NCBI GenBank assembly: GCA_000091205.1
Contig: AP006496.2
Reading direction: 5' to 3' (one strand)
Source: Cyanidioschyzon merolae
Lineage: Eukaryota
Length of the DNA: 64,000 nucleotides
This document shows, piece by piece, positions 29,029 to 39,264 of this stretch; positions within the stretch are counted from its first letter, which is position 1, and each line of letters starts with the position of its first letter. The notes under the pieces were generated by a model. It was given only the letters and a program-made list of their open reading frames with translations. It made no database searches and had not been told where the DNA came from. The position numbers and the translations under genes are program-made.

Positions 29029-30522
29029 TCAGTTGGATTGCAACGGGGCCAGAACACCTCCGGAAAGGTGCCTGATGGCAGCGTACATCCCTACCAGCGC
29101 CCGAGCATATGGATGAAGGCCCTGCCTCGGCGGCGTCACGAGGAAGCGTTCGCGCCCAATGCCCAGCGTGCCCGCAAACCTGCTTATATACAAGTTCCAT
29201 ATCCATTCGAGGACACGCAGCGGTACGAACGCAGCATGAGCGATTTCATGCGACTCCAAGTTCCCATAACACGACACCAGCACGCCGTTCACCAGCAGCG
29301 TTCCCGCCTCCGTCAGCGGCGCATAGGCATCTGCGTGCCGCACGCGCGTCATCGACTCGATGCGCTCGAGGTGTCCGTTCGCGCTGCGCACGTACACGCC
29401 CGGGTGCAGGCGCCGGGCCAGTCGATACCCCCCAGCCCCCAGAGGTGCATCTGTAGCCCATATTAAATGATTTTCCGTGATCTCGAGCAGCTGCCTCGTC
29501 GTCGTGATGCGCAAATACGGAATTGCGCTACCGTGTGGGATACGATCTACGAAGCCGTAGACGCGAGTGGCTACTCGCCTGGGCGTCCCCGATGGGTGCT
29601 CACCCGCGCTCAGGGTCATGACTTGGTCTCCGACGCGAAGTTCGCGCATACGCACAGCGCTGCCGTCGGGGCGCTCGACCAGCGCATCACCCGGGAAACA
29701 GACAAATCCGGATCCACTCGAATACGAGGGCTGGAACGCACCCGCTGCCTTACCGCTGTGCGGCTGATACAGCGGAATTTCGGTTTGTACCGGATTTGGG
29801 GGACATTTCGAGTTTCCGTTGAACTCTCGACACTGGTTTTGAGTGTCATAGGCGATCGTCATGTTGATATTGGAAACAAATCGCAGGTCGAGAAGTGCGG
29901 TGCACTGTGGCGAGATGCCAACGAAACCTGCCTCCGGCAAGTCATAGCTCTCACCGGGATTCAGTGTGAATACAAAGCATATGACTCGACTATCCTGGCC
30001 TATGGCAGCAATTGGTAAACTCGCACTCGAGCCTGTCAACGCAGGGTACGGTCCCGCGGCGATGAAAGCGAGGTTGTCCTCCAGGTACGCGGGCCAGAAC
30101 GCATCACCGAGACAATACGTTGACCCCGGCTGCTGGAGAATGCCGCGGTTGAGAGCAACAGCACCGCTCTCGTTCGTCGGGTTTTCGAAGGTCCACATGA
30201 CAACGCCCTCGTTCTGGTTGAGCCACTTCCAGCTCACACGCAGCCCCTGGTCGCTCACACACTCCTGACCGTCTTCGAGCGGAGCCGGTGGCGGGCTTAC
30301 CGGAGACGGCGCCGGCGCTGATCTCCCAAGGGTTTCCAGCTCCGCGTCTACATTCAATACGAGCCGGCTTGCACAGCCCCGCCCGGTACGCCCTCGGCCA
30401 CTTTCGGGTTGCGTCGCCGCACCGAACACTTCACGACGAGTAACGACAGCACTACTGACGAGGCTGCTGAGGCTCAGAACCAGTACTATCGCCAGTACTA
30501 TTTGCGTACCGTTTCTAGTCAT
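29029..30522 (-). CDS. Secreted Hedgehog/intein-type Hint ('Hog') autoprocessing protein 1: signal peptide + uncharacterised N-terminal domain + Hint domain
   Basis: Signal peptide 'MTRNGTQIVLAIVLVLSLSSLVSSA'. The Hint module starts at the conserved Cys in 'SGFV|CFPGDALVERPDGSAVRMRELRVGDQVMTL', close to the Hh 'GCF' autocleavage site (Cys ~aa 275, nt ~29700), and continues '...FVDRIPHGSAIPYLRITTT...TENHLIWAT...THAD..LVNGVLVSCYG'. ATG verified at 30522..30520. Confidence 0.75.
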   Translation of the reverse strand: MTRNGTQIVLAIVLVLSLSSLVSSAVVTRREVFGAATQPESGRGRTGRGCASRLVLNVDAELETLGRSAPAPSPVSPPPAPLEDGQECVSDQGLRVSWKWLNQNEGVVMWTFENPTNESGAVALNRGILQQPGSTYCLGDAFWPAYLEDNLAFIAAGPYPALTGSSASLPIAAIGQDSRVICFVFTLNPGESYDLPEAGFVGISPQCTALLDLRFVSNINMTIAYDTQNQCREFNGNSKCPPNPVQTEIPLYQPHSGKAAGAFQPSYSSGSGFVCFPGDALVERPDGSAVRMRELRVGDQVMTLSAGEHPSGTPRRVATRVYGFVDRIPHGSAIPYLRITTTRQLLEITENHLIWATDAPLGAGGYRLARRLHPGVYVRSANGHLERIESMTRVRHADAYAPLTEAGTLLVNGVLVSCYGNLESHEIAHAAFVPLRVLEWIWNLYISRFAGTLGIGRERFLVTPPRQGLHPYARALVGMYAAIRHLSGGVLAPLQSN

Positions 30523-32773
30523 GAAGTGAAAGAAGCCGCTGAGGCCCTAAAGTTACAATCCAATTTTTTGCCTACACGAGTGACACGTAGCCACAAGCTG
30601 TCGAGGCGACGGTCGAGAATCTGACGCGTGTCCATTGAGGAGAAAACTCTTCACGCGTGTGATGGCTAGTGCGCCGCCAGCCAGCGCGCTCGCCTGGCGT
30701 GGATGAAGCAGCGACATTTCATCATGTTCAGATTTTGTCCGAAGATGGTATACGGGTATATCGTGGAGTGCTGCTCGGATATGTATTTGCCGTTCTCGAT
30801 CAGAGAAGCGCCTGCAGTTTCTCAATGGGCGCTTCTACGATCCACAATGCCCATACTAGTCCAGTCCAGTCCAGTCCATTCTTTCTACGGCGAGTAGACG
30901 CCGGATCGATGTAGTGATTCAGCGGGTGCTCTCCTTTGGTGCAAGTTGTCCGAGTCTACCTGAGTTCCTCTGCAGGCGCGAATGCTATGTAACACGATAG
31001 AAGCGACCACCACTCGTCTCGACGCACCGCGACGTACACGTTACCCGCACCAGACTTGCTGTCTGCATCAATAATTGGAACTATCCAGGGGCTCGCAGGC
31101 ATCGGAGCCTGATATACTTGCCTACCGTATTCTCGGATCGTGCGCTGTTGCTGTTGATGCTGCCGCTGCAACGGTCTTCTGATACAGATACAACGGCTTT
31201 GGGGTGCTTCTCAGGGCGTCAGCTCGAGGCTCTTGTCCGTTGAAGTACGCACTCGCGTTTCGAGTCATGGAAGACGGCACTCTCGACGCCTGCTGCGCCA
31301 TCAGCGTGACTGCAGACTGCAAGCACGTTCGCTTCCATATGACGAGTTCGCTGAAGCGCTCTGCGGACGCGCACCCTGGAGCACGCTCTTCAAGTCGTTC
31401 ATCGGATCCTCGGTCTGCAGAGCGGAAACCGTTTTGCTTTGTCGTACTGGGGGCATGAGGCGAACACCACGCGGCCTTCGCGGCTGACACGCGTACCAGC
31501 ACTGCAGCTCGGGCAGCGACATATGCAGTACTGTTTCCGTCGACCAAATGGAATACGCCTGCCTTGATGCATCAGAAGCGTTCCAGGCGAGTGTTTCGAT
31601 CGAGTCTTGATGGTCTTGGCTCATAGCACCTACACTTTTGGAAAGCATGTCCGTGTGCCGAGCACCTTGAACCTTTACGAAAGTCTGGGACCGGGGTCGG
31701 GACCTCTGCCGTGCGGCTTCCGGGAGCGCCTGCCGTTTCCCTGGAACGCGTAATCGTTATAGCGCCTTGCTATGCGCTAGACAATCCCTCTTCAATAGAT
31801 CACAGAACAGCGGTCTCACACTTGTGTTTATGGTCTCTGCATGCCAGTATTCTCGTGGAATCGAAGCAAAATCAGAGGCCGTAAACGCATTGCTGCAGAC
31901 GCAGCGCTACGACTGGCCGGAGATACGTACAGCCTCGATGCAAGAACCAGTCCACGCGTCCAATCCGTACCGATCAAGAAGACATGAGAGCTGGTTCTAG
32001 ATGAACGCGAACACCGAGATCGTGTCCAGTCGTCTGTTGCACAGTCTGTGGCGTGGTGACTGCGGTGCGCGCGTCGGAACAGGCTGTCCGCTACGCCCAC
32101 TGGTGTCTGGTCCGTAAGCGGATCGTGTCGGCCCAGGGCGAACCGAGAACGCAACCTTGCAGGGAGTCTCTTCCAGGGCGAGACTTCCGACTAGAGAGCC
32201 ACCGATCCTGTCTGTTGGGATGCGTGGAGGCGTATCAGGCGTCGACGCGGAACACAAACGCTGTGGAGCGGGTACCACGTCCCGTGATGGCTGTGTTGGA
32301 CCTGAGCTCTGCCTCTGCCGCTGGTGAATCGCTACGCAACCGTGCCGCGCAATCGGCACTCTCCGACGGGCATCCTCTTTGCACCTAGACGCCTAGCGGG
32401 TTGTGTCCCAGTGACTACCAGATTCAAGAAGCCGTACCCGCTGCGGCGACACGTCCCGGACGAAATCAAGCGCAGTTTCGGCTGCAAGACGCGCCTAGTC
32501 CCTGGTTATCGCACACTCCGCGTGCAAACCTGTGCGTTGTTGTTGGCAAGGCTGCATGGTTGCACGCGCCGAGCGCGATACCACCCCGTACCCGGATACC
32601 AGCACAGACCTGAGGTCGCACGCTTCATTCATGGTACACGAGCACCTCGAGGACATCTCGCATAGGATCCGAACCCAGTCGTTTTTCACAGCATTTTCCT
32701 CATTCAAGTCGTGATGTATTCGTCAAATGCGAAGCGATGAGAGCGTTTAAGGTGCGTGACTGGAGTATCTCGA

Positions 32774-34555
32774 TCAGAGCGCATCGCGTGCGGGGCAGAG
32801 CGGTCCCAACGCACGACAAATCATGATGAGGAAGCGGGCATACGGATGAATTCCGCTTCTGCTGAACGTCGGTTGGGGCGGGGTTTGCGTTTGCGCATGA
32901 GGCGCGATCGACCAGGCGCTCGCAGTGTACCGCTTGACCCGATGGTAGACGCGGAGAGGGAGAAACGCGAGGTGCGCCCATACCTGCGAAACGCGGCCGC
33001 TGTAGCAAGATACCAGATGATCGTTCACGAGAAGCGTCCCTGTATCGGTGAGTGGTGCCAATGCACCATGCACAGTGGTTTGATCAATCCGCACGACAAT
33101 GGCGGTGGTCAGCGCCTCCACGAGCAGCCTGGAGCCGACCTCCAACCTGCACGCTGGTACCATCTTGATCTGGCCATCGGAGGGGGATTTCACCGCCACC
33201 AAATGATCCGCAGAGAGTTCCAATGTGCCATGATCCGTAGTGATCCGGAGATAGAAGACTCCATAGTCCTCGGGTTCATAGTCTGCAAATCCGTACACTT
33301 GCGTCAGCAGACGAGCGTGCGGCTCAGTGGCGGCACGTGTCCATATCCATTCGCCGACACGCAGCTCTCGAAGGGCTCGCATCGAGCCGTTGCGCAAGCG
33401 CACCTGCATTTCTCCCGAGAGGCAGTTGCCTCGACGCGGTAGCGTCGCCCGTTCGCGCACGACCACAGCCGGCAAAATGAGGTCACCCGCCGAGGGCCAG
33501 AACGCACCCTCCAGGGATCCGTCGATCGGGGCATACACGGGAAACGTGTTCAGGTAGGGATCCGGCGGGCAGCGCGTCGTTCCCGCAAAATCGTGGCACT
33601 GGAACGCCACGTTGTACGTGATCTGGTATGCGCTGTTTTGTATGAAGTTCACATCGACGAGCTCGTGGCAGTACGGCTCGGAGCCCGCATAGCCGCCTTC
33701 GTCGACGGTGATTGTTGCGCCCCCGCGAATCGGGAACACGAAGGCAACGCCCGGATGGCGGATGCCGACGAGCGCCAGCGGCAAGTTCTGCACGGGGCCT
33801 TCAATTGGGGCGTACGGCCCAGTGCCAATGTGTGTCAGGCCGGTTTCCAGGTACGCTGGCCAGAAGGCGTTCCCGAATGCGTACCAGCCGCTGCCGAGAA
33901 CACCGCGGGTGAGCACCACGACGCCTTGTGATTCAGTAGGGTTCTGGAACGTCCAGCGTACCAAGCCCGCTGCTTGATCCACCCAAGTCCAGTGGACCTG
34001 GATTCCACGCCCACTCTGACAGAAGAAGCCGGTGCTGGTCGGGCTCGAAATCGGCGATGGAGGCGCGCTGACTGTTCTCGACTGTGACGAAGGTGTCGAT
34101 GGCGTGTCCGATTGCCGCTGAGATGGAGTCTGAACCAGCGTGGGTGTCGGTACCGTCGAGCAGCCACAGCAACAGCAATCGCGAGTACAGCACGACATAC
34201 AGCACGGGTAGCCAATGGTGGGTATGCTCGGGATCTGCGCATTGAGCGAGGGAATCTGCCCAAAAGAAACCGGAGGCAGAGACGGAAACGTGAATTTGAG
34301 CATGCCCACGGATCGTTCTCCATGCTCCAATGCGGATAACCAAGTTGAGCTTGTTCCGTTTGGCGTCTCTGTGCGAAACGATGCGTTCACCACGCGTGCG
34401 GATTCTGCGTTACGTGTCCATCCCGACCCGGTACTGCACTCTGTTTGCCTCACGGAGAAAGAGCGTGATTGAGCCGCTGCCAAGTGCTGAACAAATGCAC
34501 TGCTCGAGAGCCACCAGAGCATCAAAAGCGAGCGAAACCTTCTCGTTGAAATCAT
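32774..34555 (-). CDS. Secreted Hedgehog/intein-type Hint ('Hog') autoprocessing protein 2 (paralog of 29029..30522), with an added Cys-cluster and a Pro/Ser/Thr-rich linker
   Basis: Signal peptide 'MISTRRFRSLLMLWWLSSSAFVQHLAAA'. 'CCMSCCTRDCCCCGC' then a mucin-like 'TPTLVQTPSQRQSDTPSTPSSQSRTVSAPPSPISSPTST'. Shared N-domain motifs 'WTFQNPTESQG' and 'GNAFWPAYLETGL'. The Hint module begins 'RRGN|CLSGEMQVRLRNGSMRALRELRVGEWIWT...FYLRITTDHGTLELSADHLVAV...LVNDHLVSCYS' (Cys ~aa 378, nt ~33424). ATG verified at 34555..34553. Confidence 0.75.
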   Translation of the reverse strand: MISTRRFRSLLMLWWLSSSAFVQHLAAAQSRSFSVRQTECSTGSGWTRNAESARVVNASFRTETPNGTSSTWLSALEHGERSVGMLKFTFPSLPPVSFGQIPSLNAQIPSIPTIGYPCCMSCCTRDCCCCGCSTVPTPTLVQTPSQRQSDTPSTPSSQSRTVSAPPSPISSPTSTGFFCQSGRGIQVHWTWVDQAAGLVRWTFQNPTESQGVVVLTRGVLGSGWYAFGNAFWPAYLETGLTHIGTGPYAPIEGPVQNLPLALVGIRHPGVAFVFPIRGGATITVDEGGYAGSEPYCHELVDVNFIQNSAYQITYNVAFQCHDFAGTTRCPPDPYLNTFPVYAPIDGSLEGAFWPSAGDLILPAVVVRERATLPRRGNCLSGEMQVRLRNGSMRALRELRVGEWIWTRAATEPHARLLTQVYGFADYEPEDYGVFYLRITTDHGTLELSADHLVAVKSPSDGQIKMVPACRLEVGSRLLVEALTTAIVVRIDQTTVHGALAPLTDTGTLLVNDHLVSCYSGRVSQVWAHLAFLPLRVYHRVKRYTASAWSIAPHAQTQTPPQPTFSRSGIHPYARFLIMICRALGPLCPARDAL

Positions 34556-37299: not shown

Positions 37300-39264
37300 A
37301 TGAGCTTCGTGGGGCCCAAACCGACACCGACCTCCCGCATACGGAAGGACGACTCGCCGGAAACACGCAGCAACGGCAGTAGTGTGTCGCCAGTGGATAC
37401 CTCACCGCGAACCGCGCCACAAGAGGCGCAGCTTCAGCTCCCGAAGCGACGTGACTGGTACCGGATTCCGAATGCGGCAAGCGCCGGCGGAGTCGGGTTC
37501 TCTGATCGAGCAGAGCTCGAGCGACAGCGCCACGTTGTCCGGGATATGCTTCGGCAGGTTGGTTCTAGCTTCATTGAAGGCAAAGACCTCGTGAACGTAA
37601 GTTTACCGATTCGTCTGTTTGAGCCGCGCTCGTTCCTTCAGCGCCTAACCGATGATTGGGCGTATTGCTCAACGCTATTGAAAGCAGCTGCGCACGCGAC
37701 CGACACACTCGATCGCTTCAAGTTAACGATTGCGTTTGCCATTGCGGGTCTACACAAGTCGGCAACCATGTTCAAACCGTTCAATCCTTTGCTTGGGGAG
37801 ACCTTTCAAGCGTGTATGCCTAGTGATGGAACCCGGATTTATCTGGAGCAAACTTGTCATCACCCGCCGGTGACGCACTGGCGCATCCGTGCCGCAGACC
37901 GATCCTATGAGTTCACCGGTTTCGGCGCGTACAGCGCTCGCGTGCAGCTATTTGAGAACGCGATTCGCGCACAACGCCTCGGCGTCAACGTTGTCCATTT
38001 TCGCGATGGATCGCGCATTATTTTCTGGCTACCCTACATGAAAATACATGGCATTGTGTTTGGCGAGCGGCGCTTGGAATATCTAGGAAAGGCGGTGTTC
38101 TTGTACGAACCGCCACGCAATTTCACGACATCCGGTATACCGAGCCGAGCCTCGCTCTCAGACGGTGAAAACACCGAACAACGGCGAAGCAGCGAGACTT
38201 TTGCGGAGCCGGATCGAGCGCTCGTTGCGGTCATGCTTCTGAACAGCGAAAAAACTGGATTCGTTGGCACGCTTCGTGGCGTTGCACGCGGCATCGGTCG
38301 CATGTTTGGCGGTCGTAACAACAACAACAGCAGCAGCAATAACGCTAACGCTAACACCAATGCCAATGTCAGCAAGAGAACCCCAGTCGCAGGTGGCCGT
38401 CCCGTTAGCTACCCGACAGGGCGAGCTTCGAATGGCGCCATATCGGGGTTGGATACGAGCCGTCCGATACCAACAGATGTGTTTCGTGGCATCATCGCTA
38501 GTGTGGATGCACCACAGACACCGAACGCTGGCTATCTTGCCGGTGACGACTCGAGCACGACTCCAAGTCAGCCAGGCAGGCCCGGGCAACCCATACTGAA
38601 CGCACAGCGACGCAAAAGAATTACCCGCCGGCAGGTCAAGCAGCTTCTGGCAGAGTTTGCTACGCGTAATGGTCCGCTTGCCTCCAGTCCATGGTCGTCC
38701 ATGGACTGGCGAGCGAGCCAAGACGTGGACCAGGTTGCCGTTCGAGAGCAAGCGCCGAGTCTGTCGGTCACCGATGGCGTCTCCGATGCAAACCTGCAGC
38801 GTTCGTCGTTGTCGTCGTCCTCATTGGCTTCATCGGCACGCAACGATCCGTACCGGGGCGCCGGCAGACGCCAGCGTTCCCACAGCGCCCTCGATCCCGT
38901 TGTATTATGTAGTTTCGAGGGCACATACCTCGGATTCGTTGATTTTGATGGGCAACGATACTGGGATATTCGTGATATGCCAGGTGAGGCGCCGCTTCCG
39001 GTGCCGCTCGAGGAGGCGCTGCCCAGCGATAGCCGTTTCCGCGAAGATGCGCGGGCGCTTGCAGGCGCACTGCAGCCTGGGTTAAGTGAGCGAGAGCAAA
39101 GCGATCGCATGATGAAGGCGCAAGCAGCAAAAGAACGCGTGGAGAATCAACAGCGTGCAGATCGGGTCCTTCGCGAACGAGGTCGCCGCGAGCGTGGCAT
39201 CAAAGAATCCAACGCATTTGTTCCTGAGCGCATTCTCCGCGAAGATACGTGTTACTGGCCTTGA
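37300..39264 (+). CDS. Oxysterol-binding protein-related protein (ORP/OSBP family) with a long low-complexity insertion
   Basis: OSBP fingerprint 'EQTCHHPPVTHW'. Conserved C-terminal 'FDGQRYWDIRDM...LPSDSRFREDARAL'. Asn/Ser-rich insertion 'NNNNSSSNNANANTNANV'. ATG verified at 37300. Confidence 0.8.
   Translation: MSFVGPKPTPTSRIRKDDSPETRSNGSSVSPVDTSPRTAPQEAQLQLPKRRDWYRIPNAASAGGVGFSDRAELERQRHVVRDMLRQVGSSFIEGKDLVNVSLPIRLFEPRSFLQRLTDDWAYCSTLLKAAAHATDTLDRFKLTIAFAIAGLHKSATMFKPFNPLLGETFQACMPSDGTRIYLEQTCHHPPVTHWRIRAADRSYEFTGFGAYSARVQLFENAIRAQRLGVNVVHFRDGSRIIFWLPYMKIHGIVFGERRLEYLGKAVFLYEPPRNFTTSGIPSRASLSDGENTEQRRSSETFAEPDRALVAVMLLNSEKTGFVGTLRGVARGIGRMFGGRNNNNSSSNNANANTNANVSKRTPVAGGRPVSYPTGRASNGAISGLDTSRPIPTDVFRGIIASVDAPQTPNAGYLAGDDSSTTPSQPGRPGQPILNAQRRKRITRRQVKQLLAEFATRNGPLASSPWSSMDWRASQDVDQVAVREQAPSLSVTDGVSDANLQRSSLSSSSLASSARNDPYRGAGRRQRSHSALDPVVLCSFEGTYLGFVDFDGQRYWDIRDMPGEAPLPVPLEEALPSDSRFREDARALAGALQPGLSEREQSDRMMKAQAAKERVENQQRADRVLRERGRRERGIKESNAFVPERILREDTCYWP

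Follow-up and report, generated by a model that had tools for sequence, protein, structure and literature searches.

Two minus-strand genes in a 64,000-nucleotide stretch of Cyanidioschyzon merolae DNA (contig AP006496.2; the window in what follows) encode the proteins P1 (gene 1) and P2 (gene 2), in each of which a Hedgehog-type Hog domain follows a cargo domain with homologues in archaeal viruses. We consider it likely that P1 and P2 are non-Hedgehog Hog proteins of the Cyanidiophyceae that cleave themselves and tether an archaeal-virus-like cargo to lipid, the cargo domain having been gained by horizontal gene transfer (HGT). Both genes encode a complete Hog domain, comprising a Hint module and a helical tail like the sterol- or adduct-recognition region (SRR/ARR), with its catalytic set intact and conserved, and the cargo belongs to a recognisable but uncharacterised family, phrog_6678, without a relative among solved structures. 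Neither the genes nor their assignment to Hog is new; what is added here is the family of the cargo and where it occurs. A first-pass annotation of the window had described two paralogous genes some 2.2 kb apart in an alga, and this holds: the open reading frames (ORFs) are separated by 2,252 bp, P1 and P2 share 36% identity across 421 residues (E 2e-77, far above chance), and P1 is 100% identical across 497 residues to the C. merolae 10D protein XP_005537407.1/BAM81371.1. That protein already bears the annotation 'similar to hedgehog protein', and non-Hedgehog Hog proteins of the Cyanidiophyceae figure in PMC2362128, PMC9812998 and PMC13353863, so the genes are not undescribed; the signalling or adhesion role that the first-pass annotation had suggested is speculative.

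The Pfam Hint family PF01079 (gathering cut-off 29.7 bits) matches P1 with 114.8 bits (E 5e-33) and P2 with 113.9 bits (E 1e-32) over model positions 9-209 of 213, and solved chains of Sonic hedgehog (SHH) and Drosophila Hedgehog (Hh) are matched by P1 at E 2e-11 and by the C-terminal half of P2 at E 1.5e-13. The first-pass annotation had assigned a Hedgehog-type Hint module to both genes, starting at GFV↓C275FPGD in gene 1 and RGN↓C378LSGE in gene 2, and had likened the former to the metazoan GCFPG site. Both sites were located, and C275 aligns with Cys258 of Hh and with the GCFPG of SHH, CFPG being common to both. Aligned to Hh, the catalytic set reads C275/D326/T349/H352 in P1 and C378/D425/S448/H451 in P2, opposite C258, D303, T326 and H329 of the Drosophila protein, which we take to be the residues driving autoprocessing; D303 activates the sterol. 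The Cys and His, the latter within the T/S-x-x-H motif, are invariant in 14/14 aligned Hog sequences and the Asp is found throughout the 12 cyanidiophycean ones, with the change of Thr to Ser restricted to the P2 lineage. In the tail, P2 can be aligned with Hh as far as residue 458 of 471, a stretch that takes in the SRR motif, which reads GIHWYA in Hh and GIHPYA in P2, and GxHxYA is invariant in the orthologues; the P1 tail aligns just partially to SHH and is modelled with low confidence. A full-length AlphaFold model of P1, built from a shallow 12-sequence alignment, has a mean predicted local distance difference test (pLDDT) score of 65.7 and shows, from N to C terminus, a hydrophobic helix, a disordered stretch (24-82), the beta-rich cargo, a flexible segment (260-272) leading up to the cleavage site, a beta-rich Hint module (273-420) and two helices (423-452 and 471-486). 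Pfam gave no match at all, even at E<=10, in the N-terminal 270 (P1) or 375 (P2) residues, and so none to the HhN 'Hedge' domain, no Kelch or trefoil domain in either protein, and no intein C-terminal splicing block (sub-threshold Hint_2 and Vint, no Intein_splicing), both proteins ending after the SRR-like tail. With neither HhN nor a splicing block, P1 and P2 are therefore Hog proteins in Burglin's sense, and neither Hedgehogs nor inteins.

The cargo spans about 185 residues and is modelled in P1 with a pLDDT of 92.6. The first-pass annotation had found it unassignable to any family, which is right insofar as neither Pfam (even at E<=10) nor NCBIfam nor PADLOC contains it, as none of the three assigns a family to any of 113 relatives over the domain, and as comparison of its fold with solved structures gave no significant match; it is wrong insofar as the domain belongs to phrog_6678. 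When the 190-aa cargo was used by itself, a word-indexed search gave no match; this proved a false negative, since proteins 99-100% identical to it are in the collection and a full-length query and an exhaustive profile search both recovered many relatives. The latter, run with HMMER from a two-sequence hidden Markov model (HMM) over 1.84 billion representatives, yielded 115 proteins at E<1e-3, 57 at E<1e-10 and 10 at E<1e-30, with E-values as low as 1e-23 for non-algal proteins. Against phrog_6678 the P1 cargo scores E 7.4e-15 (residues 10-145 on profile positions 30-167 of 235), and relatives reach 3e-33; an algal-seeded HMM matches viral proteins at E 1e-32 to 1e-51; and tblastn leads from the cargo domain of the window to the virus SMRV1 at E 8e-12. 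In a Foldseek search of BFVD, viral models were the only significant matches, namely A0A346LU67 of SFV1 (E 2e-9, template modelling (TM) score 0.65) and A0A3Q8Q407 of SBRV1 (E 1e-8, TM 0.70). Pairwise identities between algal cargo and viral or archaeal proteins are 21-33%.

The motifs that the first-pass annotation had listed as shared by the two cargo domains were all found, namely WKWLNQ/WTWVDQ, WTF(E/Q)NPT, G(D/N)AFWPAYLE, GPYP/GPYA and QC(R/H)(E/D)F..CPP(N/D)P. Across the family, R126, E197 and G199 (P1 numbering) are invariant (73/73 sequences), and another 13 positions reach a conservation of at least 80% in the algal as well as in the prokaryotic/viral group, which makes 16 family-wide positions in all; W110, N114, Y136, G139, A141, Y146, F183, F185, Y225 and P244 are near-invariant. 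The invariant Arg and Glu, together with the aromatic GxAFWP motif, suggest a pocket for binding or catalysis, and our best guess, made with low confidence, is that the domain is a beta-sandwich that binds a ligand or glycan and has the Arg/Glu pair and AFWP at its centre. C88, C207, C231 and C240 occur in 13/13 algal members and are mostly missing from the 60 prokaryotic/viral ones, and these four alga-specific cysteines likely form two disulfides, which we read as a mark of adaptation to secretion. The UniProt name 'Pherophorin domain' attached to Cyanidium protein P0014 could not be reproduced with Pfam and was dropped. In three metagenomic homologues (P0074, P0080 and P0088) an intein of about 360 residues with a LAGLIDADG domain interrupts the motif, beginning with C after GNAFW and ending with THN before CVY; the equivalent site in algae lies between GDAFW and PAY, in P1 at aa 139-146 (nt ~30085-30108). 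Inteins usually sit at functionally critical sites, so that their insertion within AFWP argues that the motif is functionally central. The cargo family is thus tied to Hint-fold elements in two ways, with an intein inside in metagenomic homologues and a Hog domain behind in algae.

A tblastn search of GenBank phage records with a metagenomic relative found homologues in 41 Ligamenvirales records, all of Sulfolobales or Acidianus viruses and all annotated hypothetical: SIFV0066, SIFV2 gp61, AFV1 ORF224, AFV2, AFV3/6/7/8/9, SFV1 ORF28-205, SBFV1, SMRV1 orf32, SBRV1, SIRV4-11 and two S. shibatae viruses, AFV6 gp62 and SIRV4 gp46 being members of the phrog_6678-type family. Judging by these records, the family is kept in essentially all lipothrixvirus genera and in many rudiviruses. 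In the genomes of SIRV4, AFV1, SMRV1, SIFV and AFV6 (L005, L009, L011-L013) the gene lies near one end and is usually adjacent or close to genes for an S-adenosylmethionine-dependent methyltransferase and a glycosyltransferase; old viral annotations mention a 'putative calcium binding EF-hand motif', and in SFV1 the homologue falls outside the annotated virion proteins. Cluster look-up identified archaeal members in Ferroplasma acidiphilum (chromosomal), Thermoplasmataceae and Candidatus Marsarchaeota, one further member coming from a metagenome-assembled genome (MAG) labelled Parvarchaeum (DPANN). The contig of that member (P0018; L004, GCA_038729505.1 JAVYRY010000007.1, 11,335 bp), binned as 'Candidatus Parvarchaeum', consists of nearly all same-strand small ORFs with no Pfam match and looks like a virus or mobile element rather than cellular DNA. 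Bacterial members occur in Acidimicrobiales and in Paraburkholderia, here as a 989-aa protein. Prokaryotic and viral members are mostly 200-290 aa long and lack signal peptides; the C-terminal regions of the multi-domain relatives P0065, P0078, P0015, P0043 and P0079 gave no informative match besides weak DUF346 repeats in P0079. Among the stand-alone members P0022-P0119, 20/93 begin with G[GS] and two hydrophobic residues at positions ~4-9 (for example MKIVGGILPY), the count being 0/93 in the control stretch of residues 61-85, and many stand-alone members end with a helical tail bearing a Cys...Cys pair.

The sole eukaryotes among the matches are Cyanidiophyceae. A comparison of the domain with and without a Hint partner, as the first-pass annotation had proposed, shows it Hog-fused in Cyanidiales and unfused in Galdieria, where the members of G. 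phlegrea, G. partita and G. sulphuraria have no Hint and are predicted to be secreted by the hydrophobic-leader heuristic. In an unrooted neighbour-joining (NJ) tree of 104 domain sequences all cyanidiophycean sequences cluster, with 97% bootstrap once the long branch P0033, itself a Galdieria sulphuraria gene, is left out, and within them Cyanidiales (93%) and Galdieria (93%) separate. The Cyanidiales comprise a P1 group (86%), a P2 group (91%) and a third group (73%) with C. merolae BAM81542.1, encoded on another chromosome, each of the three holding Cyanidium, Cyanidiococcus-like and Cyanidioschyzon members. The order tubulin, SAP/LSM, oxysterol-binding protein (OSBP), Hint, Hint, PQ-loop, ABCG is the same in Cyanidiococcus, where the orthologue lies at least 75 kb away from a contig end, and the Cyanidium orthologues CDCA04G1189 and CDCA04G1190 are side by side. 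Three paralogue groups, together with a syntenic or adjacent pair across genera, argue that duplication and Hog fusion preceded the split of the genera, and on this phylogenetic and positional evidence P1 and P2 are an ancient tandem pair, not recent subtelomeric duplicates. The most economical reading of the distribution is a single acquisition by a cyanidiophycean ancestor from the acidic hot-spring prokaryotic/viral pool. The divergent P0033 gene (6001-6733 of G. sulphuraria BPMW01000043.1, L014) encodes no signal peptide and is accompanied by a DNA polymerase B exonuclease-domain gene, DUF5767, a kinase/TFIIS-zinc-ribbon fusion and many ORFs without a Pfam match; the region may be an endogenous large-DNA-virus insertion and, if so, a hint of a viral route of transfer.

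We propose the following course of events. The cargo would have entered the cyanidiophycean ancestor horizontally from the acid-hot-spring gene pool, then gained a signal peptide and its two likely disulfides and, in Cyanidiales, been fused to Hog and expanded into at least three paralogue groups. The present-day precursor would enter the endoplasmic reticulum, where Cys275 (P1) or Cys378 (P2) would attack the preceding bond, V274↓C275 or N377↓C378, by an N-to-S acyl shift, and the SRR-like tail would hold the lipid nucleophile that resolves the thioester, for which a sterol is the most plausible candidate. The cargo, freed with a C-terminal lipid ester, would stay tethered at the outer face of the plasma membrane, and such display would suit wall-less haploid cells, the stage in which most of the 17 Hog genes of C. 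merolae are reported to be expressed (PMC13353863). That a captured archaeal or viral fold has in this way been re-engineered for secretion, fused to Hog and displayed as a lipid-tethered surface protein is a proposition to which we give an even chance.

Several points weigh against this interpretation. The signal peptides were judged by eye from a basic n-region, a hydrophobic h-region and an SSA↓VV or AAA↓QS c-region; Val in P1 and Asn in P2 stand before the nucleophile, where Hh has Gly; and the viral and archaeal homologues seem cytoplasmic, so that transferring their function to a secreted algal protein may be doubtful. Only about 30 of the 115 matches carry taxon labels, no operon logic was seen near the Acidimicrobiales, Ferroplasma and another archaeal homologue, which sit in housekeeping neighbourhoods, and partner domains and defence-system models gave no functional clue. 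We infer the direction of HGT from taxonomic distribution and an unrooted NJ tree, in which the sister group of the algal sequences is weakly placed (13% support). Finally, the ARR regions of non-Hedgehog proteins may use other adducts, a possibility expressed in Burglin's renaming of the region (PMC2362128). This last point, like the partial alignability of the SRR-like tail to SHH and its low-confidence model, would accord with autoprocessing in which water or a non-sterol nucleophile resolves the thioester, the Hog domain then being a maturation or release protease. We regard this as unlikely, though the most serious of the alternatives: the Asp equivalent to the sterol-activating D303 is conserved, the alignment of P2 with Hh runs through GIHWYA to residue 458, and GxHxYA is invariant.

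The cargo might also be an old eukaryotic or red-algal invention that was passed to co-habiting archaea and viruses, or an ancient domain lost nearly everywhere. The unrooted tree with its weakly placed algal sister group would allow for this, and the partners share acidic hot habitats, which makes transfer ecologically possible either way. We nevertheless consider it quite improbable, since the non-algal members are much more diverse, spanning virus families, Thermoplasmatales, Marsarchaeota, the DPANN-labelled MAG, Acidimicrobiales and Paraburkholderia and including intein-bearing and multi-domain proteins, whereas the eukaryotic ones are confined to one tight clade of Cyanidiophyceae, and the putative signal peptide and the four cysteines are derived and restricted to that clade.

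Less probable still is a Hog domain that is catalytically dead or structural, leaving the uncleaved proteins secreted or associated with the membrane through the hydrophobic SRR-like helices. The Val or Asn in place of Gly before the nucleophile would fit such a role, as would the Ser for Thr in the TxxH motif of the P2 lineage; Ser at this position is, however, an accepted variant in Hint-fold proteins, and the Cys, Asp and His are kept without exception by the cyanidiophycean orthologues of three genera and three paralogue groups, which argues for purifying selection on catalysis. That the cargo is a true orphan, resembling viral and archaeal proteins spuriously through composition or convergent beta-sandwiches, as identities of just 21-33% and the empty word-indexed search might be taken to mean, is effectively refuted by the profile (1e-23), phrog_6678 (7e-15) and tblastn (8e-12) matches, by TM scores of 0.65-0.70 to viral models only and by the 16 conserved positions. 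We thus retain, as the likely reading, self-cleaving Hog proteins with a horizontally acquired, lipid-tethered cargo.

The coordinates of the two genes and their parts are collected in Table 1. A hydrophobic N-terminal segment is present in every full-length orthologue. The Cys cluster and the Pro/Ser/Thr-rich linker that the first-pass annotation had noted in gene 2 were both located; elsewhere the cluster is represented by a looser Cys/Pro/Thr pattern in Cyanidium P0007 and is lacking in P0009. In a protein from a metal-rich habitat, such a cluster might bind metal or serve as a site of acylation.

Table 1. Genes 1 and 2 and the parts of their products, with positions in the window.
Feature	Position	Strand	Basis
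Gene 1 (P1)	29029..30522	-	497-aa ORF; equals C. merolae 10D XP_005537407.1/BAM81371.1; Pfam Hint
P1 putative signal peptide, aa 1-25, MTRNGTQ-IVLAIVLVLSLSSLV-SSA↓VV	30448..30522	-	Hydrophobicity heuristic; N-terminal helix in model
P1 disordered Pro-rich linker, aa 26-84, includes APAPSPVSPPPAP	30271..30447	-	pLDDT <50 for residues 24-82; sequence
P1 cargo, aa 85-269, all-beta, phrog_6678 family; R126, E197, G199; C88, C207, C231, C240	29716..30270	-	Profile search, model, alignment
P1 Cys275 codon, predicted autocleavage nucleophile, bond V274↓C275	29698..29700	-	Aligned to Hh Cys258 and SHH GCFPG; 14/14 Hog sequences
P1 Hint module, aa 275-420; D326, T349, H352	29263..29700	-	Pfam, alignment, model
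P1 SRR/ARR-like tail, aa 421-497, GLHPYAR	29032..29262	-	Pfam coverage to 208/213; predicted helices 423-452, 471-486; motif invariant in orthologues
Gene 2 (P2)	32774..34555	-	593-aa ORF; gene 1 paralogue
P2 putative signal peptide, aa 1-28, ...LLMLWWLSSSAFVQHLAAA↓QS	34472..34555	-	Heuristic
P2 Cys cluster CCMSCCTRDCCCCGC, aa 118-132	34160..34204	-	Sequence; orthologue P0154 keeps CCLSCCAQDCCCCGC
P2 Pro/Ser/Thr-rich mucin-like linker, aa 133-175	34031..34159	-	Sequence
P2 cargo, aa 176-358, P1 cargo family	33482..34030	-	Alignment, tblastn, profile search
P2 Cys378 codon, predicted autocleavage nucleophile, bond N377↓C378	33422..33424	-	Alignments, sequence
P2 Hint module, aa 378-519; D425, S448, H451	32999..33424	-	Pfam, alignments
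P2 SRR/ARR-like tail, aa 520-593, GIHPYAR	32777..32998	-	Drosophila Hh alignment up to residue 458 including GIHWYA

The pair is flanked by genes for proteins typical of eukaryotes (Na+/H+ exchanger, ABCG transporter, PQ-loop, oxysterol-binding protein, SAP/LSM, tubulin, FancD2 and Ofd1-type oxygenase), all of them long, uninterrupted ORFs of about 57% GC; together with the identity of P1 to the 10D protein, this marks the window as nuclear DNA of C. merolae. Searches found no third cargo/Hog copy in the 64-kb window (tblastn) and no tRNAs, Rfam RNAs or tandem repeats at the locus of the pair. The OSBP gene (PF01237, E 8e-41) lies at 37300-39264 on the plus strand, 2.7 kb from gene 2, and is next to the Hog pair in Cyanidiococcus (L006) as well; that a gene for a sterol-binding protein stands beside Hog genes whose products may transfer sterol probably reflects synteny by chance.

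Hedgehog evolved from Hog proteins, and almost nothing is known of the cargo or the activity of those outside animals. Secreted Hog proteins with lineage-specific N-termini were described from red algae, mosses and alveolates by Burglin (PMC2362128); the Hog, Kelch+Hog and trefoil genes of Cyanidiales are the subject of Cho et al. (PMC9812998) and of a Plant Cell paper of 2026 (PMC13353863), and the C. merolae 'similar to hedgehog protein' genes go back to Nozaki 2007, as cited in PMC13353863. In the literature searched we found no description of the N-terminal domain of the non-Kelch class, which is treated simply as 'Hog'. The present family links Hedgehog evolution with HGT into extremophilic red algae and with the 'dark matter' of archaeal viruses. 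If our reading is correct, it would provide the first cargo of a Hog protein to have come from archaea or viruses, and the genetically tractable C. merolae would offer a handle on what a core protein, so far 'dark', does in the filamentous viruses of archaea.

Compared with metazoan Hedgehog (Shh and Drosophila Hh; PDB 7e2i, 6td6 and 1at0), P1 and P2 have a homologous C-terminal domain, with CFPG (in P1), Asp, TxxH and GxHxYA, but they lack HhN and the Gly before the nucleophile, and no Patched/Smoothened pathway is implied. The choanoflagellate Hoglet (PMC2362128), whose cargo is a cellulose-binding domain followed by a Thr-rich linker, is a secreted Hog protein that likewise has a small beta-rich cargo, its linker resembling the mucin-like one of P2; the cargo of P1 and P2 is, however, unrelated by sequence to known carbohydrate-binding modules and has no significant structural match. 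The subtelomeric Kelch+Hog/trefoil family (PMC9812998, PMC13353863) shares with the pair its organisms, the type of Hog domain and Thr/Pro-rich linkers, whereas P1 and P2 carry neither Kelch nor trefoil and reside in a conserved housekeeping neighbourhood. The closest in architecture are the non-Hedgehog Hog proteins of protists and algae (PMC2362128), of which gene 1 encodes one and which have a signal peptide (putative in P1 and P2), a lineage-specific N-terminus, and Hint plus ARR/SRR; their N-terminus is unassigned in the literature searched, whereas that of P1 and P2 is a defined domain of about 185 residues with viral, archaeal and bacterial homologues. While the viral and archaeal phrog_6678 proteins are stand-alone, of some 200-240 aa, with a C-terminal helical tail and without signal peptide, the four algal cysteines or Hint, those of the Ligamenvirales are homologues of the algal cargo in both sequence and predicted structure, sharing with it the Arg, the Glu, the Gly and the GxAFWP motif.

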